Numbered from the stretch's first letter, positions 5,004 through 60,696 are shown. The stretch: 64,000 bases of DNA from Clostridia bacterium (GCA_900768545.1 CAAGDD010000003.1:82097-146096); one strand, 5' to 3'. Made by a program: numbers and translations. The notes: generated by a model from the sequence alone, not told the origin.

Positions 5004-5078
5004 TGGTGCACCCACCAAGACTCGAACTCGGGATAATCGTTCCGAAGACGATTGTGATATCCACTTCACTATGGGTGC
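5004..5078 (-). tRNA. tRNA-Arg (anticodon UCG), CCA encoded
   Basis: Manual cloverleaf: acceptor GCACCCA/TGGGTGC, D stem GTGA/TCAC, anticodon stem ATCGT/ACGAT with loop CTTCGGA, T loop TTCGAGT; 75 nt. Confidence 0.9.
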
Positions 5079-5378
5079 ATAAGTATTGCACACATAGTGA
5101 AGTATATCTCATACCAGCTATGGGTGCATGTTAATTTTGTCAAGTTCTGCCAAAAAAAATAATTTATTTTTGTTAGGCGAAAAATTTTTATCGTTTCAAA
5201 CACTAATGCTGACACGATTTTCAGCAATATTATAGAACTAAAATTTGAAAATGTCAAAATCTATTTCATTTTTTATGCCCAATTTGCAAGTTTTGCTTGC
5301 AATTTTTGTTATTTATGTTTAAAATAATAATAAATATATTTAGTTTTGACAAAAACTAAATTTTTATGGGAGAAAACT

Positions 5379-7391
5379 ATGTCAAAAAAATTAAAACCTT
5401 TGATTATTTGGGTGCTCGTTTTTGCGGCTATCGGTTATGCTGGAGGTGCAGTGTTGCACTATTTCACACAACATCCAGCAAGTTTTGTTGACTCTTTGAT
5501 TGTTGACTATGCTTACATCGGTGCGGGAATTGGTGCAGCCATTGGATTTTTGTTTAGTTTCGCTGGAAAGAAAGAAAAGAAAGACGAAAAGAAGCCAGCC
5601 ACAACTGGAAAGACCGCTGACGGCGAAGAAATGGATTTGGCGACAAACGCACACTGGTATAATTTGAAAAACTTGAAGACCGATCTTGTTTCAGGAAAAA
5701 TCATTTCAACAACTTGGAACGAACTTCCACAACTTCAAACTTCTGGCGTTGTGTTTAGAAATCAAATCGAAGACGGAAAATACAAAATTGGAATGAAAGA
5801 CGAATATCACTGTTTGGTTATCGGGACAACCGCTTCCGGAAAAACAAGTGCTTGTCTTGTTCCTACAATCCGCATTCTTGGACACACCGGCGAAAAACCA
5901 AATATGGTTATCACCGATCCAAAGGGAGAACTTTTTGTTCAAACAAGCAAGATTATGGAAGATGAAGGTTATCGTGTCGTAACGCTCAATCTTCGTGACG
6001 CGTTTTCATCTACTCGCTGGAATCCACTTGACCACGCTTATGAAGTTTATCACAAAGGCAAAAACTGCAAAAACAACATTCAAAAATACACAGGAAAGTC
6101 AAAACCTTCTCAAATGGGTTACAAAGAAATCCCTGGTGAAGAATATGGCGAAGAATGGTATATTTTTGAAGGTGTGGCTTATCCTACAATCGAAAAATTG
6201 AAGATCGCAGTAAATAGTGCTGAACAAATTTATTGTGATGCTGCACAAAACGAACTTCGCGAAATTTGCAACACCATTGCTCCAAAGTCACAAGCACAAG
6301 ACCCAACATGGGAAGAAGGCGCGCAAGACTATCTTTATGGCTGCGCACTTGCAATGCTTGAAGACAGTTTGAATCCAGAACTTGGAATGACCAAAGAAAA
6401 ATTCAACTTCTTCAACTTGTATCGTATCGCCACCTATCGTGACCCAGATGCTGACGCTCCATTTGAGACAATCAGAAGATATTTGCTTCAAGGACGAGAT
6501 GCCGCAACATCTGTTGTCCCAAACTTGACTTCGGCGGTAATTAACAACGCTCCAAACACAACCAAATCATACATCGGGGTTTTGAACGGCAAAATCTCAT
6601 TTATGAACGACAAAGGTATCGCTTATCTTACATCTCAAAGCGACATTGATTTTGGAACATTTACAGACAAGCCAACAGTTTTCTATCTTATTATTCCAGA
6701 TGATCGTGAAGAGCGTCACAACTTGGCAATTTTGTGCATTTCTCAACTTTACAAGCGTCTTGTTGACAAAGCAAATTCTGTCGGCGGAAAGCTTAAAAAA
6801 CACACTTACTTCATTTTGGAAGAATTTGGTAATATGCCAAAGATTCCAAAGTTTGCCGAAATGATCACAGTTTCGCGTGGAAGAAACATTTTGTATGAAA
6901 TGGCTGTTCAATCTTACACCCAGCTTGAAACAAAATATGGTGACAAAGATTCGAAAACAATTATCGCAAACTGCAATGCTCAAATCTATCTTGGAACAGA
7001 CGACCAAGCAACACTTGATGCATTTTCGAAAAAGTGCGGCGAAGTTCAACTTGTTTATCAAGAAACAAACACAAGCACTTCGAAAAACGACAACGGCAAA
7101 GACGGAAAGAGCACAACAGACAGCAAGAGCGTTCAAAGAACAACTCGCCCACTTATTTCGGCTTATCAACTTGGTCAAATTGAAAGAAATGAAGCTATCG
7201 TAAAATTGTTTAGATTTGACCCTATGAAGATTAAACAAACGCCAAACTATCAAACACCTTTCTTCTATAAGAAAGACGCAGACATCAACACTATTTCAAC
7301 AAACAGTTTTGATGAAGTCGGGGTCTATTATGATATCAAACTTCGAAATCAAAAAATTTTGAAATCTTCAAGATTTAGCGATGACTTTTAA
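5379..7391 (+). CDS. type IV secretion coupling protein (VirD4/TraG/TraD family ATPase), orphan
   Basis: Start at ATG 5379 (GGGAGA upstream). Two N-terminal TM helices, Walker A VIGTTASGKTS, DPKGE, RWNPL, and Walker-B-like YFILEEFGNMPKIP. Confidence 0.75.
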   Translation: MSKKLKPLIIWVLVFAAIGYAGGAVLHYFTQHPASFVDSLIVDYAYIGAGIGAAIGFLFSFAGKKEKKDEKKPATTGKTADGEEMDLATNAHWYNLKNLKTDLVSGKIISTTWNELPQLQTSGVVFRNQIEDGKYKIGMKDEYHCLVIGTTASGKTSACLVPTIRILGHTGEKPNMVITDPKGELFVQTSKIMEDEGYRVVTLNLRDAFSSTRWNPLDHAYEVYHKGKNCKNNIQKYTGKSKPSQMGYKEIPGEEYGEEWYIFEGVAYPTIEKLKIAVNSAEQIYCDAAQNELREICNTIAPKSQAQDPTWEEGAQDYLYGCALAMLEDSLNPELGMTKEKFNFFNLYRIATYRDPDADAPFETIRRYLLQGRDAATSVVPNLTSAVINNAPNTTKSYIGVLNGKISFMNDKGIAYLTSQSDIDFGTFTDKPTVFYLIIPDDREERHNLAILCISQLYKRLVDKANSVGGKLKKHTYFILEEFGNMPKIPKFAEMITVSRGRNILYEMAVQSYTQLETKYGDKDSKTIIANCNAQIYLGTDDQATLDAFSKKCGEVQLVYQETNTSTSKNDNGKDGKSTTDSKSVQRTTRPLISAYQLGQIERNEAIVKLFRFDPMKIKQTPNYQTPFFYKKDADINTISTNSFDEVGVYYDIKLRNQKILKSSRFSDDF

Positions 7392-10737: not shown

Positions 10738-10776
10738 GAAAAAGCGCCATAATTGGGTGCTTTTTATATGGCGGGA
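10738..10776 (-). repeat. degenerate tRNA 3'-end-like core (ATGGCGGGA on + strand) plus adjacent terminator hairpin
   Basis: The minus strand reads GGTATGAATCCCGCCA followed by AAAGCACC-loop-GGCGCTTT and T-rich sequence. The same 9-mer ATGGCGGGA recurs at 12612-12620. Confidence 0.35.
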
Positions 10777-11146
10777 TTCATACCAACACTTGCGTCATAA
10801 GTAAATACAATCAGAACCTAGTACTCCAATTTTAATTGTCTATAAAATACAAAAGAATATAAGGCTTTTATCCTTAAAAGTAATTTTAATATATTAATTT
10901 GATTTTTTATTCTCTTTTCATAATATGTTACGCTATAACTTTATTATTCATTCATACACATTACTTAGTTTTTGGTTTAATTATTTCAAGAATTTACTAA
11001 TATCTTAAAAAAATAAATATAAATATTTTGTAAAATTATACAAAAATGAAAATGTTATGTTATACTATATTTATAAAATTGTAGGCTTCTTGATTTTACT
11101 CGATTGACAACGACTAAAATTTTCTTTTATAGGAAAAGGGAGAAAG

Positions 11147-11305
11147 ATGATGTATAAAACAGAACTAATAGGCTACACACCTGTAGCAAAGAAAATGGCA
11201 AAGAAAATTGAAGACAAGTGTAACGAAATGGAAAAAGACGGCTATGTTTTAATTTCCACAACAATCACACTTGGCGCAAAGGCTATTTTGATTTTTAAGA
11301 AATAA
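11147..11305 (+). CDS. small hypothetical protein (52 aa), below the ORF-track cutoff
   Basis: AGGGAGAAAG then ATG. Translates to MMYKTELIGYTPVAKKMAKKIEDKCNEMEKDGYVLISTTITLGAKAILIFKK. Confidence 0.35.
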   Translation: MMYKTELIGYTPVAKKMAKKIEDKCNEMEKDGYVLISTTITLGAKAILIFKK

Positions 11306-11383
11306 TAAAAAATATAGCTTGGTGAATTATGGTTATATAAAGGAGAAAATATAAAAACAAAACATAAAATTTTTAGTTTAATA

Positions 11384-11989
11384 ATGGCAATATTACTAAT
11401 TATTCCATCAATGTTGTTCTTAACTGCTTGTGGAGAAAATGGAAATAATGGTTCAGGTGAAAATCCTAACTTACACGATAGTTCCAAATGGTTTACAGAA
11501 GCTGAGTTGTCAGCGGTTGGGCTATCTAATTTAACAGCGCCAACTGGTCTTAACGGAGCAATATCTTCTAGTGATTATTGGTTTAATGGTGGTTACTCAT
11601 TTTCGCAACCATGTGATAATGTTGATTTGTTAGCAGAAAATGCAGAAATTTATTTAAACTATTTCAAAACTAACTATGATGGATATTTTGGACATATCTC
11701 TGGTAATCACGGTGTAATGTATGGCGAAAACGAAACATGGTATGTTCTAGAACAAAGTAACAATTTAAGCGACTATTTTGATGACAATCCAAGTAAACTT
11801 TATAAATTTTACTATGTTACAAACCACGATATAGATAACAAAGGATATTTTGTTAAAAACTCGGTTTACACACTTGAAATTCGTTACGAATTTAATGTTT
11901 CAACAAATCAATATTTATTTAAACTATTTATAGAAAAAGCAGATACATCATCTAATGGAACATATTCATACTACTATAAAATGAAATAA
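11384..11989 (+). CDS. lipoprotein, function unknown
   Basis: Lipobox LFLTAC near the N-terminus. The ATG start gives no basic n-region. In-frame ATA at 11351, just after AGGAGA, would add IKTKHKIFSLI, so the true start is uncertain. Confidence 0.6.
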   Translation: MAILLIIPSMLFLTACGENGNNGSGENPNLHDSSKWFTEAELSAVGLSNLTAPTGLNGAISSSDYWFNGGYSFSQPCDNVDLLAENAEIYLNYFKTNYDGYFGHISGNHGVMYGENETWYVLEQSNNLSDYFDDNPSKLYKFYYVTNHDIDNKGYFVKNSVYTLEIRYEFNVSTNQYLFKLFIEKADTSSNGTYSYYYKMK

Positions 11990-12020
11990 GTTTAATAAAA
12001 TGTAATTCAAATATTTATAA

Positions 12021-12048
12021 AATGAGAGCAGTGTTTGCTCTCATTTTA
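12021..12048. terminator. bidirectional terminator
   Basis: ATGAGAGCA-GTGTT-TGCTCTCAT with flanking A and T runs. Confidence 0.7.
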
Positions 12049-12141
12049 TATGCCCGAAAAATTTTTTATAATAATCGTCTTTTTTTCTTTTATCATACTA
12101 TAAGTTTGTTCATCTTTTTCATCATAGGATTTATTTTTTCT

Positions 12142-12380
12142 AAACCTTCTATTTAGATTTGCCTTTCGGCAGGGGCAAAGTAGCATTGTTTGGCAAAAAG
12201 AACATTCCTTTAATGCAAGTTGTAGAAATCAACGAAAAAGAATAAAAAATTGTCTTTGAAATCAATTAGACACAAAAAAAAGACCAGGTTGTAAAACCTA
12301 GTCTTATGAGATTTATTTATATATTTTTAAATGTTTAAGCAATATTTTATTCCGTTGATTTATACGAAAACTATGCTACA
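12142..12380 (-). repeat. noncoding module R1 (direct repeat of R2 at 14756-14995)
   Basis: Blocks shared with R2: AAACCTyCTATTTAGATTTGCCTTTCGGCAG, ATTGTCTTTG, the hairpin AGACCrGGTT..AACCyAGTCT, and GTTTAAGCAATA. Here it is followed only by a 10-16 codon remnant ORF. Confidence 0.6.
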
Positions 12381-12551
12381 AAGACACAGACAAAAGCAAT
12401 ATATAAGGAGCTTATAAAAAGATAAAGTAGCATTAGTTCATGCTTTTCTTCATCCAGTTTCCGTGTTCATCTCTTTGTAAATTTATCCAATTTAAATGAG
12501 ATGGATTTTCAATCTTTGGTTTTTCGAAAGGAATAATTGCACCAAAACATT

Positions 12552-12640
12552 CATGTAAAATAAAAAACTGCACGCATTTCTCATTTTCACGAGGGTGCGT
12601 ACAGTTCTCTAATGGCGGGAAGACTGCTATCCAATTCTAA
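12552..12640 (-). repeat. degenerate tRNA-Ser 3' fragment plus near-identical copy of the terminator found downstream of tRNA-Ser(GCU)
   Basis: The reverse complement of 12552-12617 matches 27009-27076. Core AGAACTGTACGCACCCTCGTGAAAATGAGAAAkGCGTGCAGTTTTTT has one mismatch. Upstream GAATTGGATAGCAGTCTTCCCGCCA weakly resembles a T arm and acceptor end. Confidence 0.6.
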
Positions 12641-12686
12641 CATTAAAGTGTATGTTGGTGATAGGTGGATTAAAATTATTCAATCT

Positions 12687-13760
12687 CTAAATCCATATAG
12701 ATAAATCGAAAATATTATTTGTTATATTTTCTGCTGCAAATGCACCTATAATTATACCAACAGAAGATAGCGTTAAGCGTGAGATTAAAGTATCTTCCCA
12801 GTATTTAAATATACTTTCCATTTTAGGCACGATTTCGATAACTTTTTCTTTTACTTCTTTGGTACTCATTTTATTTGAATTAAATAGTGATAAAATATAT
12901 TTCTTATGAGAATCTTTAACATTAAGTCTTTCAAATGATTTATTTAAAGATTCTTCATCAATTGTATTGATTTGTAATTTTTCATTATCATTGAGACATT
13001 TTGTAAATAATGTTGGATATAAAATATTGGATTTTTCATCATCTATTATAGCGAGAGATTTTTCATCGAACCCTTTAAAAAACAATCCTGTGTAATTAGT
13101 CAAAAATATATTTTCTAAAGTATATGAAGCTGTTGATACTGTTGCACAACGTGTATAACTTAAATGTTGAAATTCAGATTCTTTTTCACTAACTCCATGT
13201 TCATAAATTGGAATTACATACTTATTTAAATATTCTGAAAATGAAGCATGGCTATTTACAGCAAGTCTTCGTGTATGGTTCAAAATAAACTTTAGTCCTA
13301 AACAATTGATTTGAGATGGTAAAAGTAGGGGCGAAGTTTTTATGGCTTCACCTAATGCGATTTGAAGTAAATTGTGATTTGGTTCTTTAATTCTTTTGAC
13401 AATTAAATTAGAAAGCAAATCTCTCAATTCGGCTGTTCCATATTTTATATAGGCTTTTTCAGCTTCGATGAAGTCAAGTTGTAAAGAAGGTTCTTCAAAA
13501 GCACCAATAATGTCATTAGGTTTTATATTTGCACTAGCGCACTTTTCTAATATTTGTGCAACTAGTTCATTTTCACGCTTTTTTGCTTCTACAAGAGCAA
13601 CCTGTTTGGCTTTATTTATTTCTTCATCAATTAAATCAAGGCATAAACTTCTAACATCCGTATAATTCATTCCATAATATACCACACCATTGTTGGTTGC
13701 AATCATATTACCATTATTTTCTTCTACTTGTTGATTAACATTATCTTTTGTTTTGCTCAT
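12687..13760 (-). CDS. hypothetical protein (357 aa), island cargo
   Basis: GGAG 6-7 nt before the ATG. N-terminus NQQVEENNGNMIATNNG repeats a motif of the upstream 66-aa ORF. Hydrophobic C-terminal segment LSSVGIIIGAFAAENI. No family confidently recognised. Confidence 0.6.
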   Translation of the reverse strand: MSKTKDNVNQQVEENNGNMIATNNGVVYYGMNYTDVRSLCLDLIDEEINKAKQVALVEAKKRENELVAQILEKCASANIKPNDIIGAFEEPSLQLDFIEAEKAYIKYGTAELRDLLSNLIVKRIKEPNHNLLQIALGEAIKTSPLLLPSQINCLGLKFILNHTRRLAVNSHASFSEYLNKYVIPIYEHGVSEKESEFQHLSYTRCATVSTASYTLENIFLTNYTGLFFKGFDEKSLAIIDDEKSNILYPTLFTKCLNDNEKLQINTIDEESLNKSFERLNVKDSHKKYILSLFNSNKMSTKEVKEKVIEIVPKMESIFKYWEDTLISRLTLSSVGIIIGAFAAENITNNIFDLSIWI

Positions 13761-13941
13761 TTATATCTCCAAAGTTAATTCCAACCATATTTCCATTGTT
13801 ATCTTTGACTTGCTGTTTAATTTTGTTATTGTTTGTTTGTTTTAATTCTTGAACCTCTTTTTTTGTTTTAAAAGCGGCAATTGCAGAAAAAACAGCAGCT
13901 ATCGAACTAATTCCTGTAAATATTAAAGTTATAATTTCCAT
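13741..13941 (-). CDS. small membrane protein (66 aa), island cargo
   Basis: GGAGG 7 nt before the ATG. N-terminal TM helix IITLIFTGISSIAAVFSAIAAF, then KQQVKDNNGNMVGINFG. Overlaps the next ORF by 20 nt. Confidence 0.5.
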   Translation of the reverse strand: MEIITLIFTGISSIAAVFSAIAAFKTKKEVQELKQTNNNKIKQQVKDNNGNMVGINFGDINEQNKR

Positions 13942-14002
13942 ATTTTATCCTCCGTAATATACAAGCATTATAGCATATTATAATAAATAATGAAAGACCT
14001 AC

Positions 14003-14037
14003 AACAAAAAAAGAAGAAGTATTTTTCAACTTCTTCT
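14003..14037 (-). terminator. rho-independent terminator separating two island operons
   Basis: AGAAGAAGT-loop-ACTTCTTCT followed by T7 on the minus strand. A TTGTAG-16-TATAAT promoter-like sequence follows at about 13960-13995. Confidence 0.6.
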
Positions 14038-14216
14038 CGCAGTTGTTTTATTGATTGCTTTGCAGATGAGAGTAAACTTCTTTTGCGGTAAGATTTTGAG
14101 AGTTGCCAAAGGTTTCGGCAAAGTTTTTTAAGTCTGTTGCAAACATTAAACTTATTCGTTTAAGTTGCTTATTTGACAAACTTGTTTTACCTAATTTTAA
14201 GGTATTATCTTCAAAA

Positions 14217-14480
14217 TTAAACTTGGCCGTGTTCTCTTTGATAAGCCAAATATGTTTCTTGTATGTAATCTACAAAAGTTATGTTTTGTAACTCATTTTC
14301 ATTAAAAGTTTGCCTACATACAGGGCAAGTGTAAGTGCTTTCTTCTGGATTGTAATCTACATCATTCCATTCAAAAGTTTCATCACAATATGGACATTGA
14401 TGTAAATCTTTGTGTTCAAATTTTCTTAAATCTTCAATTATTGCATTTAATGTGATTTTTTCTTGTAATTCTTTATTCAT
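14217..14480 (-). CDS. zinc-ribbon protein (87 aa), island cargo
   Basis: Two CxxC pairs: CPYC...CPVC. Confidence 0.55.
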   Translation of the reverse strand: MNKELQEKITLNAIIEDLRKFEHKDLHQCPYCDETFEWNDVDYNPEESTYTCPVCRQTFNENELQNITFVDYIQETYLAYQREHGQV

Positions 14481-14491
14481 TTTTAACTCCT

Positions 14492-14749
14492 TTAATCGTT
14501 TATTGTTTCAAAATCATTTACATTAACTTGTGTATTCTCAACGCCATATTGAAAATACAAATCTTGTTCTCTATCTCTTTTTAGGTCGTATTCAGTTACA
14601 TAAATCTTTCCAGCTTTCGTAACTGCAACAGTGATAGTCATTTTGTCGGTGTTTACATCTAAAATGTTAAATGTAACATCATACTCACCATCAAATAGAG
14701 AAAACTCTTTTAAGTAGTAGTTTTTGATTTCGTTTTCTTCTGTTTTCAT
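14492..14749 (-). CDS. hypothetical protein (85 aa), island cargo
   Basis: Start moved to ATG 14749 (AGGAGG upstream); MKTEENEIKNYY... No family recognised. Confidence 0.5.
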   Translation of the reverse strand: MKTEENEIKNYYLKEFSLFDGEYDVTFNILDVNTDKMTITVAVTKAGKIYVTEYDLKRDREQDLYFQYGVENTQVNVNDFETIND

Positions 14750-14755
14750 ACTATA

Positions 14756-14995
14756 AAACCTCCTATTTAGATTTGCCTTTCGGCAGACCAAATGAAAGCA
14801 GAGTTTGTTTAATCTTGTTGTTTAGTGGCAGAGCAGATGTCAATGAAAAAGAAAAAAATATTGTCTTTGGAATCTTCGTGAAAATAAAAAAAGACCGGGT
14901 TTCTAAACCCAGTCTTGTGAGATATATAATATTTATATTTAATTGTTTAAGCAATAATTTTTTCCATTTACATCTGCAACCAAATTCTGCTACGA
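14756..14995 (-). repeat. noncoding module R2 (direct repeat of R1), leader of the island operon
   Basis: Same blocks as R1. On the minus strand: TTGCTT-17-TATTAT, hairpin AGACTGGGTTT-AGA-AACCCGGTCT plus T7, then CTGCCGAAAGGCAAATCTAAATAGGAGG immediately before the 85-aa ORF. Confidence 0.6.
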
Positions 14996-15166
14996 TAGGG
15001 CGGACGAACGGAAAAGATAAATAGGAGTTATACAATAAAAAACACCTTGCTAGATGCAAAGTGTTTTGTTTTAGTTTATAAAAGATAATGGATAAATTAC
15101 TGAAAAGAACTCTAAATGAAAAAATACGAACTCAAAGATATCCTTCTCGTTCGTATTATTCACTAC

Positions 15167-15255
15167 TGGCGGAGAGTTAGGGATTCGAACCCCAGGAGGC
15201 TGTTAACCTCAACGGTTTTCAAGACCGCCGCTTTCGACCGCTCAGCCAACTCTCC
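15167..15255 (-). tRNA. tRNA-Ser (anticodon UGA), CCA encoded
   Basis: Acceptor GGAGAGT/ACTCTCC, anticodon loop CTTGAAA, long variable arm GAGG..CCTC, T loop TTCGAAT. A TTGCAA-TATAAT promoter-like sequence lies upstream at about 15275-15310. Confidence 0.9.
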
Positions 15256-16267: not shown

Positions 16268-16825
16268 TTACTTCACTCCTTGGCAATATTTTTCATATTC
16301 ATAAATCAAATCTTCGGCAAGTTCTTCAGGCGTTTTTGAAGAAGAGTCCATAACAAAATCGAAGTTTGACATATCGTTGTTGTCGATGCCGTAAATCATT
16401 TTGTATCTTTCATTTTCAAGTTTGCGGCGATTTATCAAAGATCTGCGCGCTTCTTTTGCGTCGGTGTATTTTTCTTTTCCTTCACGGTCAGAAGCGAGAA
16501 GCCTGTTGACCATTTCGTCTTCGTTTAAATCTACAAAAACCTTGAAAGACTCTGGAACAAAATGCCAAGCGCAACGGCTGTCAAAAACATATTTTTGCCC
16601 CCTGTATTTTTTGCCAAGTTCGGCTGTTTTTTGATCAATGAATCTGTCAAATTCTGGGTCGCTCATACAATATTGATTAAACTCTTCGGCGTTCATTCCG
16701 CGCTTTTTTGCTTCTTCTTTGAAGATGTCGCCCACGCCAATTCGAACAAACCCATATTTGTCAACCAAGATTTTTGCGATACTTGATTTTCCGCTGCAAG
16801 GCTTTCCTGTAATTGTGATAATCAT
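16268..16825 (-). CDS. cytidylate kinase-like family P-loop kinase
   Basis: MIITITGKPCSGKSS P-loop; overall resemblance to short (d)CMP kinase-like proteins. Confidence 0.6.
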   Translation of the reverse strand: MIITITGKPCSGKSSIAKILVDKYGFVRIGVGDIFKEEAKKRGMNAEEFNQYCMSDPEFDRFIDQKTAELGKKYRGQKYVFDSRCAWHFVPESFKVFVDLNEDEMVNRLLASDREGKEKYTDAKEARRSLINRRKLENERYKMIYGIDNNDMSNFDFVMDSSSKTPEELAEDLIYEYEKYCQGVK

Positions 16826-16977
16826 ATAACTCTCCTAAATTTTTTATATTTTAACATAAAACTTTTGATAGGCAAAACGATTAAAAAGTTTTGCGCAACA
16901 ATTTTTGTTGAACTGTTTATATTGTTTGTTCAAATTTCGACAATATGCTATACTCTGCATATAAAGGAGAAAATATT

Positions 16978-17820
16978 ATGGTTTTTTGGTCTAAAATGCA
17001 CCTTATTACACTTTTACCAACAATGATAATAATGATTGGCGTTTCGATTCTTATTTCTTATCTTTTAAGAAAGAAATCCCAAAAGATAAAAATTATCCCT
17101 TTGCAAGTGCTTTCTGCTATCGCGATTGGGCTTGAAATAGCAAAACAAATAATAGGAATTGTTGATGGTTATGATACGTATTGGCTTCCATTTCATTTTT
17201 CGTCTATATTTTTGTTTTCTTCTGTTGTGGTATGCTTTTTCACATATAACAAAACAAACTGGTTTGCAAGATTTTCAAACTCATATTTTTCTACATATTT
17301 GACGATGATGTTTGTTTTTATGGCTGTATATCCAGAAATTATTTACTCTGGCGAAACTATCACAAACTTTTCAGCAAACTTTTTAAATGCCCACACAATC
17401 ATTTATCACAACATTGTTTTGTTTGCATTCTTCTTGATGATCGGTTTAAATTTTTATGAAAAGAAAACAAAGTTTGGCTTGATGTCTGCTGTTTTAGGAA
17501 GTTTCTGCTACGGAATTGTTGGTGGAACTATGGCAACCATTTTGAAAACAAACTACAACAGTTTTTACTTTTGTCAAGTTGCGCCCATTGAACAAATCAG
17601 ACAATCACTTGTAAATTCGTTGGGATTTGGTGGACAGATTATTTATGTAATGATGATATTGGCGGCAACAATTTTCTTCTCGATTGTTTGCTATGGAGTG
17701 TTTAGACTTATTGTCTGGTTAAAAGAATTGATTTTCAAACAAAAAAATCAACTTATATCTCAAAAGGAAGTTTCTGACAATCAACCTGTGGACACAAATG
17801 CACAAACTGATCAAAAATAA
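16978..17820 (+). CDS. polytopic membrane protein (YwaF-like paralog)
   Basis: Start moved to ATG 16978 (AAAGGAGA upstream). Multiple TM helices; WLPFHFSSIF is analogous to the PLHLC motif. Confidence 0.5.
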   Translation: MVFWSKMHLITLLPTMIIMIGVSILISYLLRKKSQKIKIIPLQVLSAIAIGLEIAKQIIGIVDGYDTYWLPFHFSSIFLFSSVVVCFFTYNKTNWFARFSNSYFSTYLTMMFVFMAVYPEIIYSGETITNFSANFLNAHTIIYHNIVLFAFFLMIGLNFYEKKTKFGLMSAVLGSFCYGIVGGTMATILKTNYNSFYFCQVAPIEQIRQSLVNSLGFGGQIIYVMMILAATIFFSIVCYGVFRLIVWLKELIFKQKNQLISQKEVSDNQPVDTNAQTDQK

Positions 17821-17966
17821 ATCTTTTGTTTTACAATATTCTAAAAAAGTGTTGAGATTTTTTTGAGAATGTGTTAAAGTATATGTGAAGTTTGTTGATT
17901 TTGAAAAATCAACCGAAAAGGAAGATTTGCGCAAAAGCAAATTAAGGAGAAAAAGGAGAAATTAAA

Positions 17967-18776
17967 ATGCGTTCTTGTGAAGGAATAGGAAAAAACATTG
18001 AACAAGCAATTCAAAATGCTTTGTTGGAACTTAAAGTTCCAAGAGAAGATGTTGACATCAAAATTTTGAGTGAAGGTGGCTTTTTGAAAAAGGCAAAAGT
18101 TTTGGTTTCGATATCTGCTGATGCCGTTGAAAAATACGAAAAGAAAGAAGAAAACAAAAGAAGAATCGAAGACGATGCTGACGACGATTTTGTTGGCGAA
18201 TTTTTGAAGAAAAAACTTGAATCTTTGAAAGAAGAAGAAAAGATTGCTCCAAAAGAAACAAAGATTATTGTTGATGAAGAAATTTCAATTGTTGAGCCAG
18301 TTCAAGAAGAAGTCAAGATAGAAAAAAGAGAAAGAATGTCTGCCGAAGAGTTTTTGAAAGGTTTGCTCAAATCATTGAACGTTGAAGCAGAAATTGAAAG
18401 AAGCGAAGACGAAAGATATGTGACTTACAATCTCAAAGGTGACGACCTTAACGACCTTATTGGTCACCACGGCGAAGCAATGCTCGCTCTTACACAAATT
18501 ATGCCAATCATTTGCAAAAATGAAAACGGGAAGAGAGTTTTGCTTGACGTAGAAAATTATCGTCAAAAGAGAAAAGAATCTTTGATTGAACTCGCAAAGC
18601 GCACTGCGGATAAGGTTGCAAAAACAAGAAGATATTTTAAGTTTGAGCCTATGGACGCCAGCGAAAGAAAAATTATTCACACCACTCTTCAAGATGATGA
18701 CAGAGTAACAACTTTGAGCAAAGGTGAAGAACCAAACAGATATTTGATCGTGTTCCCAAAAGAATATGAAGACTAA
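17967..18776 (+). CDS. jag: RNA-binding protein Jag/KhpB (Jag_N, KH, R3H domains)
   Basis: N-terminus GIGKNIEQAIQNALLELKVPREDVDIKIL. C-terminal R3H: ASERKIIHTTLQDDDRVTTLSKGEEPNRYLIV. Confidence 0.85.
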   Translation: MRSCEGIGKNIEQAIQNALLELKVPREDVDIKILSEGGFLKKAKVLVSISADAVEKYEKKEENKRRIEDDADDDFVGEFLKKKLESLKEEEKIAPKETKIIVDEEISIVEPVQEEVKIEKRERMSAEEFLKGLLKSLNVEAEIERSEDERYVTYNLKGDDLNDLIGHHGEAMLALTQIMPIICKNENGKRVLLDVENYRQKRKESLIELAKRTADKVAKTRRYFKFEPMDASERKIIHTTLQDDDRVTTLSKGEEPNRYLIVFPKEYED

Positions 18777-18805
18777 AAAAATAAAGATGTCGATTTGACA
18801 TCTTT

Positions 18806-19456
18806 TTATTTTTCAAAATCTTTTTCGTCTGTTTTAAATGTCTTTGCATAAGGATTTGTAATTTTAAAAACTCCATAAAGCCCATAATTGTAACGATAAT
18901 GTTTTTCTGGTTTTGAATAACTGTCAACATATCGAGAATCGCCCATTTTGCTTGACCAACTCCCGTCTTTTTCTTCTTTCATGAGATGAATATCATCGGC
19001 TACAACACTAAAATATACGGCGATTTTCCACTGATTGTCTTGGTCGAGTTTTTCTTTCAGTGAACTATTTTCGATTTCTAGTCCTGCGGCTTTGACAAAA
19101 TTTATAAGCTCTCTCATGTCATTTTCGGCATTTTTAAATTTTATATTTTTGAAATCGAAAAAACTGCAACGATCTCTCCAACCGAATCTATATTCTTTCA
19201 AAAGTTCTTCGGTCAAATTGAAACATGAATGTCCAAAACAATTGACCAAACAGCCACTGTCCCAACCCTTGACTTTGGTGTTATATTCCTGATATCCGCG
19301 ACTTGGACAATATCCGTCACGAAAAATCAAATTCAGTTTCAAAACGGTCGAAGTTTTGCCGGGCGTTAAAGTTCTTGCTTGCTTCAAAAATCTTTTGAGT
19401 TCGCTAGGCGACTTTGTTTTTTCAAGGAAAAGTTTTTGATATTTTGTTCTTATCAT
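18806..19456 (-). CDS. hypothetical Cys/His-rich protein (216 aa)
   Basis: Intact ORF on the opposite strand between jag and mnmE. WDSGCLVNCFGHSCF and DDIHLMKEEKDGSWSSKMG suggest, weakly, a papain-fold hydrolase. Confidence 0.45.
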   Translation of the reverse strand: MIRTKYQKLFLEKTKSPSELKRFLKQARTLTPGKTSTVLKLNLIFRDGYCPSRGYQEYNTKVKGWDSGCLVNCFGHSCFNLTEELLKEYRFGWRDRCSFFDFKNIKFKNAENDMRELINFVKAAGLEIENSSLKEKLDQDNQWKIAVYFSVVADDIHLMKEEKDGSWSSKMGDSRYVDSYSKPEKHYRYNYGLYGVFKITNPYAKTFKTDEKDFEK

Positions 19457-19536
19457 ATTTTAATTATATTTCAAAAAAAGTTTGTTGTCAATATCAAAAT
19501 CTTGATTTTTATATAACATAATGATATAATATTTTT

Positions 19537-20874
19537 ATGGAAAAGACAATAGCGACAATTTCAACACCTTTGGCAAAAGGTGCAATAGCAATCGTAAGAA
19601 TGAGTGGAGCAACAGCAAAAGATGTTGCTCTAAATATTTTTTGCGCAAACAATTTGACAAGTGAAAATATCAAATCAAGATATATGTATTTTGGAAAACT
19701 TAAACTCGACGAAAACACTTTTGAAGAATGTTTGATGGTTTATTTCAAAGCGCCATTTTCTTACACTGGCGAAGATTTGATTGAATTTCAGGTGCATGGC
19801 GGAGTTTTGCTTTCTCAAAAAGTTTTGGACGTTTGCCTTAAAAATGGAGCGACTTTGGCAGAGCCCGGCGAGTTTTCAAAACGGGCATTTTTAAATGGAA
19901 AAATCACTCTCGACAAGGCGGAAGCAATCGTTGGCGAAATTGATGCAGAAAGCGAAGCGGAACTTAAAAACAGCCTTCAAATCACAAATGGAAAGCTTGC
20001 AAAACAGATTTTTGACGAACAAGAAAAGCTCAAATATATGCTTGCTGAACTTGAAGTTGGAATGGATTATCCAGACGAGGTTGAAGAGTTGAATTTGAAG
20101 CTTGATATCAAAAACAGATTGAAAGAAATTTTGGACGAAAATGAAATTTTGCTCAAAAACTCTCAAAATGCAACCTATTTAAAAAATGGAATTAATGTCG
20201 CCCTTGTTGGAAAAACGAATGTTGGAAAAAGCAGCGTTATGAACGCACTTTTGGGGCAAGATCGCGCGATAGTGACAGATATTCGAGGCACAACCCGTGA
20301 CAGCATAACCGAAAGTTTTTTATACAACGGCATAAAAATCAATCTTGTTGACACTGCTGGGATTCGAAAAACAAACGACATTGTTGAAAGCATTGGAATT
20401 GAGAAAAGTTATGAAAGCATAAACAAAGCAGATCTTATTTTGTTTGTTTTGGACGGCAGTGAACTTTTTGATGATGAAGACAAACAAATTTTTGACGCCG
20501 TGAAAGACAAAAAATATTTGGTTGTTGTAAACAAAGCGGACAAACAAAGAAAAACCGATAAGTTTGAAAACGAGATTGAAATTTCCGCTTTGAAAAATCA
20601 AAATATCGAAAGTTTGAAGCAAAAGATCTTTGATATGATTTTGTCGGAGCAATTTGATATAAACTCTCTTACAATCACAAATCAACGCCAAACAACAATC
20701 TTGAAAGATGCAAAGCGTCAAATCAAAGAGATTTTAAACAGCGAAAATATTTCGCTTGATGTTTTGACGATGCTTATTAAAAATGTTTGGAATACACTTG
20801 GAAAAATCACAGGCAACACAGAAAATGAAGACATTATCGATCTTATTTTCTCGAAGTTTTGTCTGGGCAAATAA
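19537..20874 (+). CDS. mnmE: tRNA modification GTPase MnmE
   Basis: G domain GKTNVGKSSVMNAL, DTAGIR, NKAD; C-terminal FCLGK motif. Confidence 0.95.
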   Translation: MEKTIATISTPLAKGAIAIVRMSGATAKDVALNIFCANNLTSENIKSRYMYFGKLKLDENTFEECLMVYFKAPFSYTGEDLIEFQVHGGVLLSQKVLDVCLKNGATLAEPGEFSKRAFLNGKITLDKAEAIVGEIDAESEAELKNSLQITNGKLAKQIFDEQEKLKYMLAELEVGMDYPDEVEELNLKLDIKNRLKEILDENEILLKNSQNATYLKNGINVALVGKTNVGKSSVMNALLGQDRAIVTDIRGTTRDSITESFLYNGIKINLVDTAGIRKTNDIVESIGIEKSYESINKADLILFVLDGSELFDDEDKQIFDAVKDKKYLVVVNKADKQRKTDKFENEIEISALKNQNIESLKQKIFDMILSEQFDINSLTITNQRQTTILKDAKRQIKEILNSENISLDVLTMLIKNVWNTLGKITGNTENEDIIDLIFSKFCLGK

Positions 20875-20882
20875 GGATAAAT

Positions 20883-22769
20883 ATGATAGAAGAATATGAT
20901 TCAATAGTAATTGGTGCTGGCCATGCTGGCTGTGAAGCGGCTCTTGCTTTGGCGCGCACTGGAAATAAAACATTGTTGCTGACAATAAGCCTTGATGCTA
21001 TCGCCTTTCTTGCTTGCAACCCTTCAATCGGTGGCACTGCAAAAGGACAACTTGTTGGCGAAATCGATGCCCTTGGTGGCGAAATGGGAATTATTGCCGA
21101 TAAGACCGCCCTTCAAATTCGAATGTTAAATCGCGGAAAAGGCCCCGCAGTTCAAAGTTTGAGAGCACAAGCGGATAAAAACGCTTATCACAGCGAAATG
21201 AAAAAGGTTTTGGAACAAGAAAAAAATCTCACAATAAGACAAGCCGAAGTTTCGAAAGTAGAAATTTTGCCAGATGGACAAAAGCTTGTTACAACAAGTT
21301 TAAACTTGAAATATCAAGCCAAAAGCGTTGTGTTTGCGACAGGGGTTTATCTTAAAAGCGAAATCATCATCGGCAGCCACAGAGAAAAAGTAGGTCCAAA
21401 CGGCTTTAAAAACAGCAGCACGCTTTCTGATAGTTTGAAAGATCTAGGAATAAAACTTCTTCGTTTTAAAACCGGAACACCTGTTCGACTTCACGCTCGC
21501 AGCATTGATTATTCGCAAATGGAAGTCCAAAAAGGTGACGACGATATCCCTTCGTTCTCGCTCATGACTGAAGGGAAGGTTGAAAACAAATGCGACTGTT
21601 ATTTGACTTATACTACAAGCGAAACTCACAAAATTATTCGTGACAATCTTGACAAAGCGCCTGCAATTTCTGGGGAAATCAAGGGGATTGGCCCAAGATA
21701 TTGCCCTTCGATCGAAACGAAAGTTGTGCGTTTTGCCGACAAAGAAAGACATCAACTTTTCTTGGAGCCTGAAGCGTTTGACACCAAGGAACTTTATCTT
21801 CAAGGTTTTAGCACTTCGATGCCGGCCGATATTCAAGAAGAAATGGTTAAGTCTGTTATTGGCTTGAAAAATGCTGAGATTATGCGTGACGCCTATGCGA
21901 TAGAGTATGACTGCATTGAGCCAACTCAATTAAATCCAACGCTCGAACTTAAAACGATCAAAGGTCTGTTCTTTGCGGGACAAATCAATGGAACAAGTGG
22001 ATATGAAGAAGCCGGCGCGCAAGGGATTGTTGCTGGAATTAACGCAAGTTTGTATAATCAAGGAAAAAAACAACTTGTTTTGAAACGCAGTGACGGATAT
22101 ATCGGTGTTTTGATTGATGATATTGTCACAAAAGGCACAAATGAGCCTTACAGAATGATGACGAGCCGTGCCGAATATCGACTTTTGCTTCGCCAAGACA
22201 ATGCGGATATGCGTTTGACTGAAATTGGTCGAAGAGTTGGGCTTGTTGACGATGCTCGTTATGCAAAATTTTTGGCTAAAAAAGAAAAACTTGCTGCACT
22301 TGAAGAAAAACTTGATCAAAAAGTTAAAGTTGATGAAAATATGAAAAAACTTTTTGAAGAAAATGGCGAAAATTTGCCAAAAGAAAGTATGAAGCTTCGT
22401 GATATTTTGAAACGAAACAATATTGACATTTTTAAACTTAATAATGTTTATCATATTTATGAAAACGAAGATCGTTTGATGCTTGAAATCATAAACACCA
22501 AAATTAAATATGAAGGATATCTTAAACAACAGCAAGAAGATGTTGAAAAAATGCTCTCTAACGAATCTGTGTTGATTCCTGCTGAATTTGATTATTTTTC
22601 AATCGGAGGAATTCGTCAAGAAGCAAAAGAAAAACTATCAAGAATCAGGCCATTGAATTTGGGGCAAGCGTCAAGAATATCGGGCGTGTCGCCTGCCGAT
22701 GTTTCAGTTTTATCAATTTGTGTTAAAAAATTTGTGAAAGAACATCAAAATAACGACAAAAACTCATAA
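20883..22769 (+). CDS. mnmG: tRNA uridine 5-carboxymethylaminomethyl modification enzyme MnmG
   Basis: Start moved to ATG 20883. YDSIVIGAGHAGCEAA FAD motif; conserved GidA core throughout. Confidence 0.95.
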   Translation: MIEEYDSIVIGAGHAGCEAALALARTGNKTLLLTISLDAIAFLACNPSIGGTAKGQLVGEIDALGGEMGIIADKTALQIRMLNRGKGPAVQSLRAQADKNAYHSEMKKVLEQEKNLTIRQAEVSKVEILPDGQKLVTTSLNLKYQAKSVVFATGVYLKSEIIIGSHREKVGPNGFKNSSTLSDSLKDLGIKLLRFKTGTPVRLHARSIDYSQMEVQKGDDDIPSFSLMTEGKVENKCDCYLTYTTSETHKIIRDNLDKAPAISGEIKGIGPRYCPSIETKVVRFADKERHQLFLEPEAFDTKELYLQGFSTSMPADIQEEMVKSVIGLKNAEIMRDAYAIEYDCIEPTQLNPTLELKTIKGLFFAGQINGTSGYEEAGAQGIVAGINASLYNQGKKQLVLKRSDGYIGVLIDDIVTKGTNEPYRMMTSRAEYRLLLRQDNADMRLTEIGRRVGLVDDARYAKFLAKKEKLAALEEKLDQKVKVDENMKKLFEENGENLPKESMKLRDILKRNNIDIFKLNNVYHIYENEDRLMLEIINTKIKYEGYLKQQQEDVEKMLSNESVLIPAEFDYFSIGGIRQEAKEKLSRIRPLNLGQASRISGVSPADVSVLSICVKKFVKEHQNNDKNS

Positions 22770-22811
22770 AATTGACAATTTTTTGCAAAAAATATAAAAA
22801 GGAAAGCAAAT

Positions 22812-23513
22812 ATGAAAAATTTGAAAGAAATTTTTGCTAAATACAACTTAAATTTAAGCGATAAGCAATGTGACGAATTTGAGTATTTTTACAAAAATCA
22901 ACTGCTTGAAGAAAATAAAATTCAAAATTTGACCACCGTAACAGAAGAACAAGATGTGATAGTGAAACACTTTTTGGACAGTGTTTTGCCAGCAGAATAT
23001 TTTGAAAATACTGCAAAGGTGGTAGATGTTGGCTCTGGAGCAGGTTTTCCTGCGATTCCGCTCAAAATTTATCGCCCGGATCTTGATATAACAATGGTTG
23101 ACAGTCTTCAAAAGCGCGTAAATTTCTTAAACAGATGTGTTGATGAGCAAAAATGGCAAAACATTCATGCAGAGCATGCGCGTGTTGAAGATTTTGCAAA
23201 ACAAAATCGAGAAAAATTTGATATTGCGACCGCTCGTGCTGTCGCTTCGCTTAATACTTTGGTTGAATATTTGTTGCCACTTATTAAAATTGGTGGAAAA
23301 GCAATTATATATAAGTCTACAAAACTTGATGAAGAACTTGTTGAAGCAAAAAATGCGATAAAAATTCTTGGCGGCGAAGTTGAACTTGTTAAAGATTATC
23401 ATATTGATGAAGCAGATTGCGAGCGAAAAGTTTTGGTTATTAAGAAGATTTCACATACTCCACCAAAATATCCACGCGACAAAAACAAAGCAAGACTTGT
23501 CCCATTAAAATAA
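22812..23513 (+). CDS. rsmG: 16S rRNA (guanine527-N7)-methyltransferase RsmG
   Basis: VVDVGSGAGFPAIPLKI SAM motif; position after mnmG. Confidence 0.9.
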   Translation: MKNLKEIFAKYNLNLSDKQCDEFEYFYKNQLLEENKIQNLTTVTEEQDVIVKHFLDSVLPAEYFENTAKVVDVGSGAGFPAIPLKIYRPDLDITMVDSLQKRVNFLNRCVDEQKWQNIHAEHARVEDFAKQNREKFDIATARAVASLNTLVEYLLPLIKIGGKAIIYKSTKLDEELVEAKNAIKILGGEVELVKDYHIDEADCERKVLVIKKISHTPPKYPRDKNKARLVPLK

Positions 23514-23521
23514 AATTTATT

Positions 23522-23577
23522 AAAAATTATCAAAAAATCACAAAAAATAGAGAAATTTTATCAAAAAAACTTAAAAA
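23522..23577. other. array of helically phased A-tracts upstream of the parA promoter
   Basis: A5-7 tracts start at 23522, 23532, 23542, 23553, 23563 and 23573 (spacing 10, 10, 11, 10, 10 nt). T-tracts follow, then TGTATAAT at 23613-23620. Confidence 0.6.
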
Positions 23578-23638
23578 TTTTGTTATTTTTCTTTATTTTT
23601 TTTATTTTTTTATGTATAATTTGTATAAAGGAAGAACT

Positions 23639-26924: not shown

Positions 26925-27014
26925 GGAGAGTTACTCAAGAGGTCGAAGAGGCTCCCCTGCTAAGGGAGTAGGGTTGTAACAGGCCGCGAGAGTTCGAATC
27001 TCTCACTCTCCGCC
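26925..27014 (+). tRNA. tRNA-Ser (anticodon GCU), CCA encoded
   Basis: Acceptor GGAGAGT/ACTCTCC, anticodon stem CTCCC/GGGAG with loop CTGCTAA, long variable arm, T arm GAGAG-TTCGAAT-CTCTC. Confidence 0.9.
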
Positions 27015-27021
27015 ACAAAAG

Positions 27022-27067
27022 AACTGTACGCACCCTCGTGAAAATGAGAAAGGCGTGCAGTTTTTTT
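27022..27067 (+). terminator. terminator after tRNA-Ser(GCU); duplicated in inverted orientation at 12552-12617
   Basis: ACTGTACGC...GCGTGCAGT stem followed by T7. Confidence 0.7.
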
Positions 27068-27211
27068 ATTTTACACGACACCTTGGCATTCCAACACCTT
27101 TCACATATAAAATCACAAATTAAAAACACTTTACATATTAATGGTATCTATATTAAACGCTGACCTTCCATTCAAAATTTAACCATTAATGTTTATATAT
27201 TTAAAAAAAGG

Positions 27212-31825: not shown

Positions 31826-31858
31826 AAAAAAAACACAAATTTAATTTTGTGTTTTTTA
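31826..31858. terminator. bidirectional terminator after the AcnX operon
   Basis: ACACAAA-loop-TTTGTGT between A8 and T6. Confidence 0.6.
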
Positions 31859-31877
31859 TCTTTCTATTTATATTGAT

Positions 31878-44818: not shown

Positions 44819-44942
44819 AATAAAAAAAAGCACATCAATTTGATGTGTTTTTTTTGTTTGATAAAAATTGTTATTTTAATAGATTTTTCTTTGTTTAAAT
44901 TCAATATACAACCACAAAAAAAAGACCGAAACGGTCTTTTTT

Positions 44943-60599: not shown

Positions 60600-60696
60600 A
60601 GTTATATTATAAACTAAAAGCCACGCTATGTCAAACAAAAGTTTGTTTTTGTTTTTCTTTTAAATTTTAAAGTTTTTAAAAATAACGAAGATTTTC

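Follow-up and report, generated by a model that had tools for sequence, protein, structure and literature searches.

Members of the SCCmec and pseudo-SCC group of staphylococci are inserted by large serine recombinases (LSRs) of the Ccr type at the 3′ end of rlmH, which remains undisrupted; they form tandem composites with short direct repeats and variable cargo, and the Ccr-less pseudo-SCC members need Ccr in trans. Elements that accrete in tandem at their target gene's 3′ end have also been described, among them ICESt1/ICESt3 of Streptococcus thermophilus and cis-mobilizable elements (CIMEs), which have lost their integration genes and kept attL and attR (PMC5704250). Integrative and mobilizable elements (IMEs) with site-specific serine recombinases integrate within genes and disrupt them, the 3′ ends of tRNA genes being the domain of tyrosine integrases (PMC5704250). 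Here we describe a genomic island at the 3′ end of a tRNA-Ser(UGA) gene that is strain-variable in an uncultured gut Clostridia species (Clostridia bacterium, GCA_900768545.1). The stretch analyzed, hereafter the window, comprises 64,000 nucleotides (nt) of contig CAAGDD010000003.1 (82097-146096); positions are counted from its first letter, and the island occupies positions 12619-15166. A preliminary description of the window, made from the sequence alone, had proposed two tandem mini-islands accreted at this tRNA gene; the tRNA-proximal one is supported by the data presented below, whereas the one at 10.8-12.6 kb is not established.

The tRNA-Ser(UGA) gene lies intact on the minus strand (15167-15255), as described before and as both ARAGORN and Rfam (tRNA, 56.8 bits) agree. 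Conspecific contigs were fetched from gut metagenomes using the proteins that flank the locus. Seven of them (L003, L005, L007, L008, L014, L015, and L018) lacked the ~2.55 kb between 12619 and 15166, and in these contigs window positions 17000-15159 were contiguous with 12618-9500 (blastn), the tRNA sequence ...CTCTCCGCCA being joined straight to TTAGAGAACTG... (window 12611 downward). With a slash at the junction, the empty site reads ...AACTCTCCGCCA/TTAGAGAACTGTACGCACCC..., the left junction in the window ...CCGCCA/GTAGTGAATAATACGAAC..., and the right junction ...GGATAGCAGTCTTCCCGCCA/TTAGAGAACTG.... Fourteen nt of each empty locus align to both 15172-15159 and 12618-12605, two segments that form an imperfect repeat (12/14 identical) reaching beyond the tRNA end. 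Within this repeat, the att core CCGCCA occurs as a direct repeat at 15167-15172 and 12613-12618; the first copy, placed on the minus strand by blastn against the empty-site contigs, constitutes the last 6 nt of the tRNA and the left junction of the island. Given the empty sites and the junction sequences, the segment 12619-15166 represents an insert of 2.55 kb placed at the final 6 nt of the tRNA. Four contigs were identical to the window at the locus. The segment at 12.6-15.2 kb is thus present or absent among strains as an independent unit, as had been supposed, and precise empty sites exist at the tRNA 3′ end. Of the features by which genomic islands are recognized, an intact tRNA 3′ end, a precise empty site, and a direct repeat of the att core were found; an internal integrase gene was not.

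The preliminary description had delimited its islands by a 9-mer, ATGGCGGGA, regarded as improbable by chance. This was borne out: exactly two matches occur in the 64-kb window, at 10768 and 12612, against 0.08 expected, and two matches were obtained in 0/100 shuffles. Its reading as a degenerate copy of the tRNA 3′ end holds only in part, since the 9-mer sites exist but their overlap with the tRNA end is limited to the 6 nt CCGCCA (7 counting the preceding C), and no longer copy of the tRNA end was found in the window at ≤3 mismatches per 25 nt. The G+C content is 28-30% across the 9-15 kb region, compared with ~36% in the flanks.

Relatives of the island encode a candidate integrase. At the same site, one contig (L004/L013) carries ~10.8 kb in which the gene for a 510-amino-acid (aa) LSR abuts the tRNA and is followed by restriction-modification genes, PycTM, a reverse transcriptase, and a HATPase protein. 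The LSR gene is carried by the relatives L013, L019, and L026 to L028; the Resolvase (PF00239), Recombinase (PF07508), and Zn_ribbon_recom (PF13408) domains were found in L013 and L019 (N-terminus MKKAVIYARYSSDSQ), and the protein is ~40% identical to phage serine integrases. In L013, the reading frame of the LSR crosses the att core and stops within the tRNA on the opposite strand (...SDYSLMAES, then stop). The homologs of L026 to L028 (96, 72, and 70% identity) each have a gene 3′ end that overlaps tRNA-Ser(GCU), and among the top LSR homologs with inspected C-termini, 15/18 run past ...AE into GFEP or GLEP, which are antisense codons of the tRNA T-arm. From this constant position of the gene over the core in four loci and from the 15/18 homologs, we infer that the LSR acts on a short identical core at the tRNA end.

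The opposite ends of these islands suggest that the LSR gene itself is divided upon insertion. At five other loci, the right ends share a common ...AACATAGACTTTAAAGTTAGAATTGGATAGCATTGRCTCCGCCA behind unrelated cargo, and those of L027 and L028 are more divergent. When translated in the LSR frame, eight right ends yield a conserved 26- to 30-residue tail with the pattern MA(E/G)xxLSNSNFKVYVGDRWIKI..., closed by a stop codon. Since the right end encodes this LSR-frame tail, integration appears to split the LSR gene; the att core would thus lie inside the gene, and integration would separate the body from the tail. In the proposed mechanism, the LSR would integrate the islands using CCGCCA at the tRNA end as the att core; after integration, the body of the gene would lie next to the tRNA and read antisense into it, and the last 26-30 codons would be left at the distal end. 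The circular form would restore the LSR with the tail ...MAEPMLSNSNFKVYVGDRWIKI....

The window island retains both pieces of such a gene. Its right end (12612-12704, plus strand) includes the conserved terminus of ~66 nt (12613-12678) with the core TGGCGG at 12613-12618, and this terminus matched an nhmmer profile built from the right ends of other loci with an E value of 4.9e-17. In the LSR frame, positions 12612-12704 (plus) encode an orphan C-terminal tail, MAGRLLSNSNIKVYVGDRWIKIIQSLNPYR, followed by a stop codon. The variant CAGTCTTCCC in this end recurs in the right end of L028, and ...TCTTCCCGCCA matches the 3′ end of the L028 host tRNA. At the left end lies trailer a (15100-15166), which on the minus strand forms the terminator hairpin of the tRNA (-18.2 kcal/mol, z -3.9) and on the plus strand, by its similarity to LSR genes, constitutes a leftover LSR gene 3′ end and thus the recombinase-side att half-site. 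Here, 22/27 nt are identical to the last LSR codons of L013, L026, and L027, with weaker likeness ~25 nt further, which gives an LSR 3′-end remnant of about 27-55 nt at ~15118-15172.

As the preliminary description had stated, no integrase lies in the interval: the open reading frames (ORFs) of 10.7-15.3 kb contain no recombinase domain, and tblastn with two related recombinases detected no LSR in the 64-kb window. Because no LSR was found in these 64 kb and two fragments of its gene remain, we regard the window island as a decayed LSR-less derivative that has kept both half-sites. According to this reading, it would have lost the LSR body and could move only by means of an LSR supplied from a sibling island, and the earlier suggestion of a decayed island that needs a recombinase in trans fits 12.6-15.2 kb well, given that relatives carry the LSR. 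The island fits the published definition of a CIME (PMC5704250) in that the integration genes are lost; both att half-sites can be recognized by sequence, with a minority variant in the core-proximal 8 nt at the right. As with CIMEs, an element without integration genes stands in tandem at one conserved site and derives by decay from an integrase-bearing relative; in contrast to them, the recombinase is an LSR instead of a tyrosine integrase, and no conjugation module is known for these elements. The window island also resembles a pseudo-SCC element in its LSR-type insertion, which leaves a conserved gene undisrupted at its 3′ end, in tandems bounded by short direct repeats, in variable cargo, and in the occurrence of recombinase-less members, although the islands here target tRNA-Ser, have one recombinase gene placed over its own core, reside in uncultured Clostridia, and carry mostly anti-phage cargo. 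With the Tn4451-type IMEs of Firmicutes they share a single LSR, a very short identical core, and small integrated elements, and differ in that the crossover falls in the last 6 nt of a tRNA that is left intact.

Several observations weigh against this reading. The LSR itself is missing from the 64 kb, and the likeness of the left end to LSR genes is seen at the DNA level only (blastp E value of 7.5). At the right end, the 8 nt adjoining the core are of the L028 subtype and not of the majority type, and the island may have lost the competence of its ends for recombination; neither circular junctions nor excision products were observed. On balance, we consider it likely that the locus holds a decayed, CIME-like island without an LSR and, downstream, an older related remnant, within a family of elements whose LSR is associated with tRNA-Ser genes. 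While the island itself is of a kind already known from CIME- and pseudo-SCC-like decay and accretion, a tRNA-Ser-targeting LSR that is split by its own att site appears less ordinary, as does the candidate single-strand promoter discussed below. LSRs could accordingly take the last nucleotides of a tRNA-Ser gene as attB and leave the tRNA intact, a niche usually credited to tyrosine integrases, and the apparent splitting of the LSR gene by integration would provide a built-in way to tie integrase activity to the state of the element. An LSR with defined att sites of 40-50 bp would furthermore be a candidate integrase for genome engineering with a conserved natural landing site.

Downstream of the island, the interval at 10.8-12.6 kb is the less certain case, and a second island there is plausible but unproven. 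Both intervals open with a shared noncoding module, as had been noted: the two copies, R1 and R2, span about 270-280 nt, share 76% identity, and occupy the same strand. The interval starts, immediately behind the att core, with a terminator hairpin on the minus strand (trailer b, 12556-12611; -26.2 kcal/mol, z -7.8, U-run), which in island-free strains directly follows the tRNA. From the core onward, a coding-like tail of 59 codons (12433-12612, minus; PP...NCTHP...FGAIIPFEKPKIENPSHLNWINLQRDEHGNW..., then stop) shows amino-acid conservation, with synonymous-type changes relative to L024 and L025 and no conserved start codon. Twenty-seven short representative proteins or ORFs with this tail were conserved from the core onward only, their N-termini being unrelated; the search for a full-length partner gave short ORFs only, and no Pfam family was found. 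The tail could represent a micro-protein or else the severed 3′ portion of a further gene that extends over a circular junction. R1 follows at ~12142-12400 (minus; 76% identity to R2, fold z -4.75), with an apical terminator at 12280-12305 (minus, terminator scan) and, on the plus strand, a promoter motif composed of TTGATT (12355-12360), a 16-nt spacer, and TGcTACAAA (12374-12382). Behind R1, repeat alignment and the ORF list revealed a 16-codon remnant of a homolog of ORF F, the conserved partner of R (12046-12096, minus; MIKEKKTIIIKNFSGI, then stop). Because the succession of trailer, tail, R1, and F stub corresponds to the head that R-F elements show at other tRNA-Ser genes, we conclude that the remnant of an old element is present here; it would be fixed in the species and have the same kind of head as the island.

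The distal boundary fared less well. The second copy of ATGGCGGGA (10768-10776), together with a weak hairpin and a U-run, had been proposed as an att copy bounding the second island (10738-10776, minus; -8.5 kcal/mol). The site is identical in L004 and L006, and beyond it the sequence context consists of TATAAAAAGCACCCAATTATGGCGC and a desulfoferrodoxin gene. Of the terminator hairpins that had been placed after each 9-mer copy, the one at 12612 is strong and the one at 10768 weak (z -1.9), with a U-run at both. The right-end profile did not detect the 10776 site even at an E value of 100, and this site is therefore unrecognizable as an island end by the profile; its spacing from TTGG to CCGCCA is 4 nt off from that of true right ends. 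Alignment of related contigs, which showed 12.6-15.2 kb to be polymorphic, revealed no polymorphism in 10.8-12.6 kb: the interval was ~98% identical in every conspecific contig examined, including those with empty or otherwise filled sites. Distant relatives were uninformative for this interval, as one contig with a TMEM164 homolog ends at the hot spot and the other represents a non-syntenic paralog. The lack of polymorphism, the profile result, the weak hairpin, and the deviating spacing tell against a second island and speak for a single one, with 10.8-12.6 kb being resident chromosome that holds an old R-F remnant and the ATGGCGGGA match at 10768 being a chance match by an ordinary terminator. 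We regard this alternative as quite possible. It has to contend with the low expectation for ATGGCGGGA in the window and the position of the match on the same strand with a U-run after it, with the layout of trailer, tail, R1, and truncated F, which is that of heads beside tRNA-Ser genes in other species (L024 and L025), and with a G+C content as low as that of the proven island.

The remainder of the interval is occupied by ORF A (52 aa; 11147-11305, plus) and ORF B (a 201-aa putative lipoprotein; 11384-11989, plus), both taken from the ORF list, which may or may not be part of an island. Neither matched a known family, and counterparts of 51 aa and 212 aa were found in all related contigs.

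The preliminary description had treated R as a repeat that opens att-delimited islands. Its distribution assigns it a different role, as it constitutes a conserved upstream element of an operon that starts with ORF F, and not an att repeat. In the window, R2 is an imperfect hairpin module of ~270 nt (14756-15030, minus), delineated by folding, promoter and terminator scans, and covariation, and it lies upstream of ORF F (85 aa; 14492-14749, minus; homologs in 25 metagenome loci and 197 protein clusters). Among species-representative genomes scanned for R, seven metagenome-assembled genomes of uncultured Clostridia contained it, and most copies lie just downstream of tRNA-Ser genes (anticodons GCU, GGA, and CGA); together with the window locus, R thus adjoins tRNA-Ser genes with the anticodons GCU, GGA, CGA, and UGA. 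A metagenome scan with ORF F yielded 25 loci with F proteins 48-99% identical; R was immediately upstream of F in 23 of them, and the remaining two have ≤~165 nt upstream of F. Genes for ArdA, PcfK-like, and PcfJ-like proteins, typical of establishment regions of conjugative elements, often follow F, and on the left side of R the opposite strand often carries defense genes. Neither F nor R matched the PLSDB plasmids or the INPHARED phages, the R pattern had no match in IMG/VR, and an Rfam 15 scan of 9-17 kb detected the tRNA only, the R regions scoring ≤24-30 bits against thresholds of 57-70.

Three explanations for such a module were discarded. A miniature inverted-repeat transposable element or other dispersed palindromic repeat does not agree with two copies in 64 kb that are tied to a position upstream of F in the same orientation and include the ribosome-binding site of F at their 3′ end. 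An invertible promoter switch is at variance with arms that covary over ~120 nt each and with the lack of any inverted-orientation variant in ~30 copies. A type I toxin-antitoxin or small-RNA locus was discarded because R is tied to F and has no small hydrophobic ORF that would suit as a partner. As a separate observation, 31 nt at 62613-62643 are 87% identical to part of R2 (local blastn E value of 1.8e-4), a likeness that is probably due to chance.

The conserved feature of R is a long hairpin. In an alignment of 20 R sequences with 54% mean identity and 68 base pairs, 84.2% of the cells were paired compared with 74.5% in shuffles (0/500), double-changed pairs numbered 35 against 21.6, and the covariation score was 0.256 against 0.06-0.10 with slid partners. 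R2 folded with a z score of -5.3 as RNA and of -5.0 to -5.3 as DNA. On its plus strand, R2 contains a -35 sequence (TTTACA, 14967-14972), an 18-nt spacer, and an extended -10 sequence (TGcTACGAT, 14988-14996). Across the family, the F-distal arm of the F-template strand comprises an A+T-rich stretch, the hexamer TTGACT, a spacer of 16-18 nt, and the motif TGnTAC(G/A)A(T/A); the -35 sequence, the spacer length, and the TGnTA motif are conserved, and the spacer constitutes the covarying part. When the strand was folded as single-stranded DNA (ssDNA), the -35 sequence was paired to 94%, the spacer to 91%, and positions -12 to -10 to 85%, while positions -9 to -7 were paired to only 14%.

This architecture recalls the Frpo/ssi-type ssDNA promoters of plasmid leading regions (Masai and Arai 1997, as summarized in PMC11541004 and PMC8708921). 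As in these, R is a conserved long imperfect hairpin that would rebuild, in the single strand, a -35 sequence, a -10 sequence, and an A+T-rich upstream element on the correctly oriented arm, according to a geometry worked out from the sequence, and it stands before ArdA and other establishment genes that all lie on one strand. It differs from them by its location in Gram-positive chromosomal islands, by an apical terminator on the sense strand, and by the lack of a PLSDB match; the likeness is one of sequence-derived architecture. R could well be a Frpo-like ssDNA promoter or priming site, although we hold this view with some reserve. On the single-stranded F-template, the stem would rebuild a sigma-A promoter firing into F, with a predicted start near 14784 at an invariant CUGCCGAAAGGC stem-loop ~35 nt before the ATG, and the apex would serve as an insulator terminator of the sense strand. 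In double-stranded R, the same promoter points away from F, and F, which sits behind a terminator, has no properly spaced -35 and -10 sequences of its own.

An extension of this model, which is tentative, would make R a family of ssDNA promoters of Gram-positive (Clostridia) mobile islands that switches direction and is linked to an LSR encoded across its own attP. In the double-stranded state, the strong -35 and extended -10 sequences would fire leftward toward variable defense cargo or toward nothing, and the apical terminator would silence the F/ArdA/PcfJK operon; in a newly transferred single strand, the same hexamers would be embedded in the hairpin with a pre-opened -10 region and fire rightward into the anti-restriction operon. 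The LSR gene across its own attP would likewise make proteins with different C-terminal tails in the integrated and circular forms. If R is indeed an ssDNA promoter, the Frpo principle would extend to chromosomal elements of Firmicutes in the form of a compact part of ~270 nt.

Several findings speak against a role of R as ssDNA. Neither oriT nor genes for a relaxase or for type IV secretion were seen in the 10 kb around the R-F operons, and transfer as ssDNA is therefore an assumption. In favor of such a role, the F-template strand folded better with DNA parameters in 17/20 sequences, and the long stem contains more A.C than G.T mismatches (47 versus 29); against it, this strand asymmetry is of marginal significance (p = 0.05 and 0.015) in a set of related sequences. 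The bias was seen only in the helix-resolved count and in the DNA-parameter fold, the whole-module energy with RNA parameters giving p = 0.14 and 1x1 mismatches being uninformative (19 versus 15). A divergent gene flanks R on the left at several loci, and the promoter could simply serve this gene in double-stranded DNA. The fold of F gave no functional clue: an AlphaFold2 (AF2) model (small beta-sheet, pLDDT 67.6) had no match in the PDB below an E value of 0.16.

The strongest rival is that R acts as RNA, either as a cis leader made from an upstream promoter, with an insulator terminator and long-range pairing that hides the Shine-Dalgarno sequence of F, or by antitermination like canT/T1 of Tn916. 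The apex of R2 (14891-14916) is a bona fide intrinsic terminator of the sense strand with a conserved U-run, and in the apex the mismatch bias is the reverse of that in the long stem, G.T (that is, G.U-type) wobbles outnumbering A.C by 19 to 6. At the base of the R2 stem, the 5′ arm is complementary to and pairs with the Shine-Dalgarno region of F, and with RNA parameters both strands of the module fold equally well. In Tn916, moreover, the terminator T1 constitutes an end-proximal insulator combined with an RNA antiterminator (PMC11658703). For the structured repeats EGeRS1 of plasmid pLS20, the authors of that study considered a role as ssDNA promoter and judged it unlikely, since it is the non-template strand that is transferred (PMC8708921); in architecture, R shares with T1 and EGeRS1 an end-proximal terminator that would block read-through from promoters of the host and repeated structured modules of ~300 nt before establishment genes in Firmicutes. 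However, a transcript with both arms would first require read-through of the apical terminator, the positions of the long stem that depart from Watson-Crick pairing are not enriched in G.U, and R has no match in Rfam. An RNA also leaves unexplained the spaced -35 and extended -10 sequences of the opposite strand and the conserved unpaired bubble at -9 to -7, and we consider this explanation somewhat unlikely.

A lesser chance, in our view an unlikely one, is that R represents an ordinary double-stranded control region with a terminator, a leftward promoter for divergent cargo, an extended -10 sequence for F, and arms that act as palindromic operators. In L034, L035, L039, L054, and L056, R has a divergent gene on its left, a TGnTAnnnT-like motif occurs on the sense strand at the mirrored position in ~11/20 copies (read by eye from the alignment), and AGTCAACGG and CGTTGACT are conserved as sequence beyond their complementarity. 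Operator palindromes nevertheless cannot account for 35 covarying pairs with changing sequence over ~120 nt per arm; the leftward genes are mutually unrelated, and there is no leftward gene where R adjoins tRNA genes.

The site at tRNA-Ser(UGA) constitutes a hot spot. Cargo other than that of the window was found there in L004/L013, L006, L016, and L017, with GmrSD, an ADP-ribosylglycohydrolase, and HEPN-Toprim among the genes of the last three. Across the island family, on tRNA-Ser genes of several anticodons, the cargo is mostly defensive and comprises restriction-modification, CBASS, GmrSD, reverse transcriptase, and a Gabija-like pair. The head of the window island (tRNA end, trailer a, R2, F, and the following ORF E) is 94% identical in L021, where it lies on tRNA-Ser(GCU), and trailer a, R2, F, and E are 95% identical in L023, directly behind the right end of another island. 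Units stand in a row in L016, L023, and L027, all of them static tandems. From the recurrence of this head we infer that it moved after the loss of the LSR, homologous exchange being the alternative. The R module of L004 has a 5′ half of the R2 type and a 3′ half of the R1 type, a scar left when R copies standing in tandem underwent homologous recombination.

That the whole hot spot arose by homologous exchange through the tRNA and R or other shared segments, with no site-specific integration and with the recombinases as mere cargo, is improbable: the hybrid module of L004 proves recombination between R copies, and the 80-aa gene described below, R, and the trailers recur among different islands, but one and the same 6-nt core marks every junction, the LSR gene invariably lies against the tRNA with its reading frame running over the core, the split tail is conserved at the opposite island end, and the same head occurs on different tRNA-Ser genes with unrelated upstream flanks.

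The locus is situated near the origin of chromosomal replication, as the genes jag, trmE, gidA, gidB, parA, and parB lie 8-15 kb from it (window 16268-25000; L001 and L013). The site is thus a defense-island hot spot near the origin in abundant uncultured Clostridia of the human gut, and for this reason public assemblies break at it. Breaks inside or beside the locus were seen in independent assemblies, at 13.87-13.97 kb (~13866-13969) in L001, L002, L011, and L012 and at 11.23 kb (~11226) in L009 and L010, and they are consistent with strain heterogeneity or with the repeats of the hot spot; contig L029 stops straight after the TMEM164 gene.

The interior of the window island would be a mosaic of two parts, one consisting of R2, F, and E as the head of an establishment operon and the other of a truncated 80-aa gene together with ORF D and a gene of the LPO_1073/Vpar_1526 family. 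Between the tRNA trailer and R2 lies a second intrinsic terminator (15039-15067, minus, terminator scan). ORF E (14217-14480, minus) encodes an 87-aa zinc-ribbon protein with Pfam zinc-finger matches. Its first ~22 residues are common to a 783-aa ResIII/DUF3427 helicase (L032, 914-3265), the version of L021 is extended to 122 aa, and ORF E is probably a chimeric leftover. At a mosaic junction near 14238, the R2-F-E module is fused, at ORF E, to a 5′-truncated copy of a 78-80-aa gene (14007-14238, minus), which blastn aligned at 73-96% identity to L004, L006, L016, L020, L023, L026, L027, and L028. This gene is present in all four LSR-bearing islands examined and also in L006, L016, L020, and L023; no Pfam family was found for it or for a 343-aa neighbor of the LSR. 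A terminator (14011-14038, minus, terminator scan) follows the truncated gene. ORF D, from the ORF list (13741-13941, minus), encodes a small protein of 66 aa with one predicted membrane helix and weak family matches only. The main cargo and largest ORF is ORF C (357 aa; 12687-13760, minus), a member of the LPO_1073/Vpar_1526 family (NCBIfam NF045477, 2.4e-63) with further matches to phrog_19542 (2.5e-18) and PF28206. PADLOC, run on the island ORFs, gave no defense-family match beyond weak zinc-ribbon noise and none for ORF C.

Further observations concern related loci and the surroundings. In L016 (16590-20558) and L017 (15629-20558), a 3′-truncated R2-type module is followed, in place of F, by a biosynthetic cluster with an Orn/DAP decarboxylase, a PALP enzyme, ATP-grasp enzymes, and arginase. 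In L054 (1450-5606), the space between tRNA-Ser(GGA) and R is occupied by a Gabija-like pair, an OLD-family ATPase with TOPRIM and a UvrD helicase, which is transcribed away from R. Within the window, a tRNA-Ser(GCU) (26925-27075) is followed by a trailer b terminator (27016-27075, -25 kcal/mol) with no R module after it; trailer b thus stands behind both the tRNA-Ser(UGA) island and tRNA-Ser(GCU), and the two loci share the flank that would be the B′ arm of attB. Beside tRNA-Arg(UCG) (5004-5078), all conspecific contigs encode a conserved orphan coupling protein of the TraG/VirD4 type (681 aa; 5346-7391, plus); no further conjugation genes were seen near it, and it may be a leftover of an older conjugative element. 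Finally, three 1-kb patches of the window, at 31000-32000, 44000-45000, and 60000-61000, have a very low G+C content (0.22-0.23 against a background of ~0.35).

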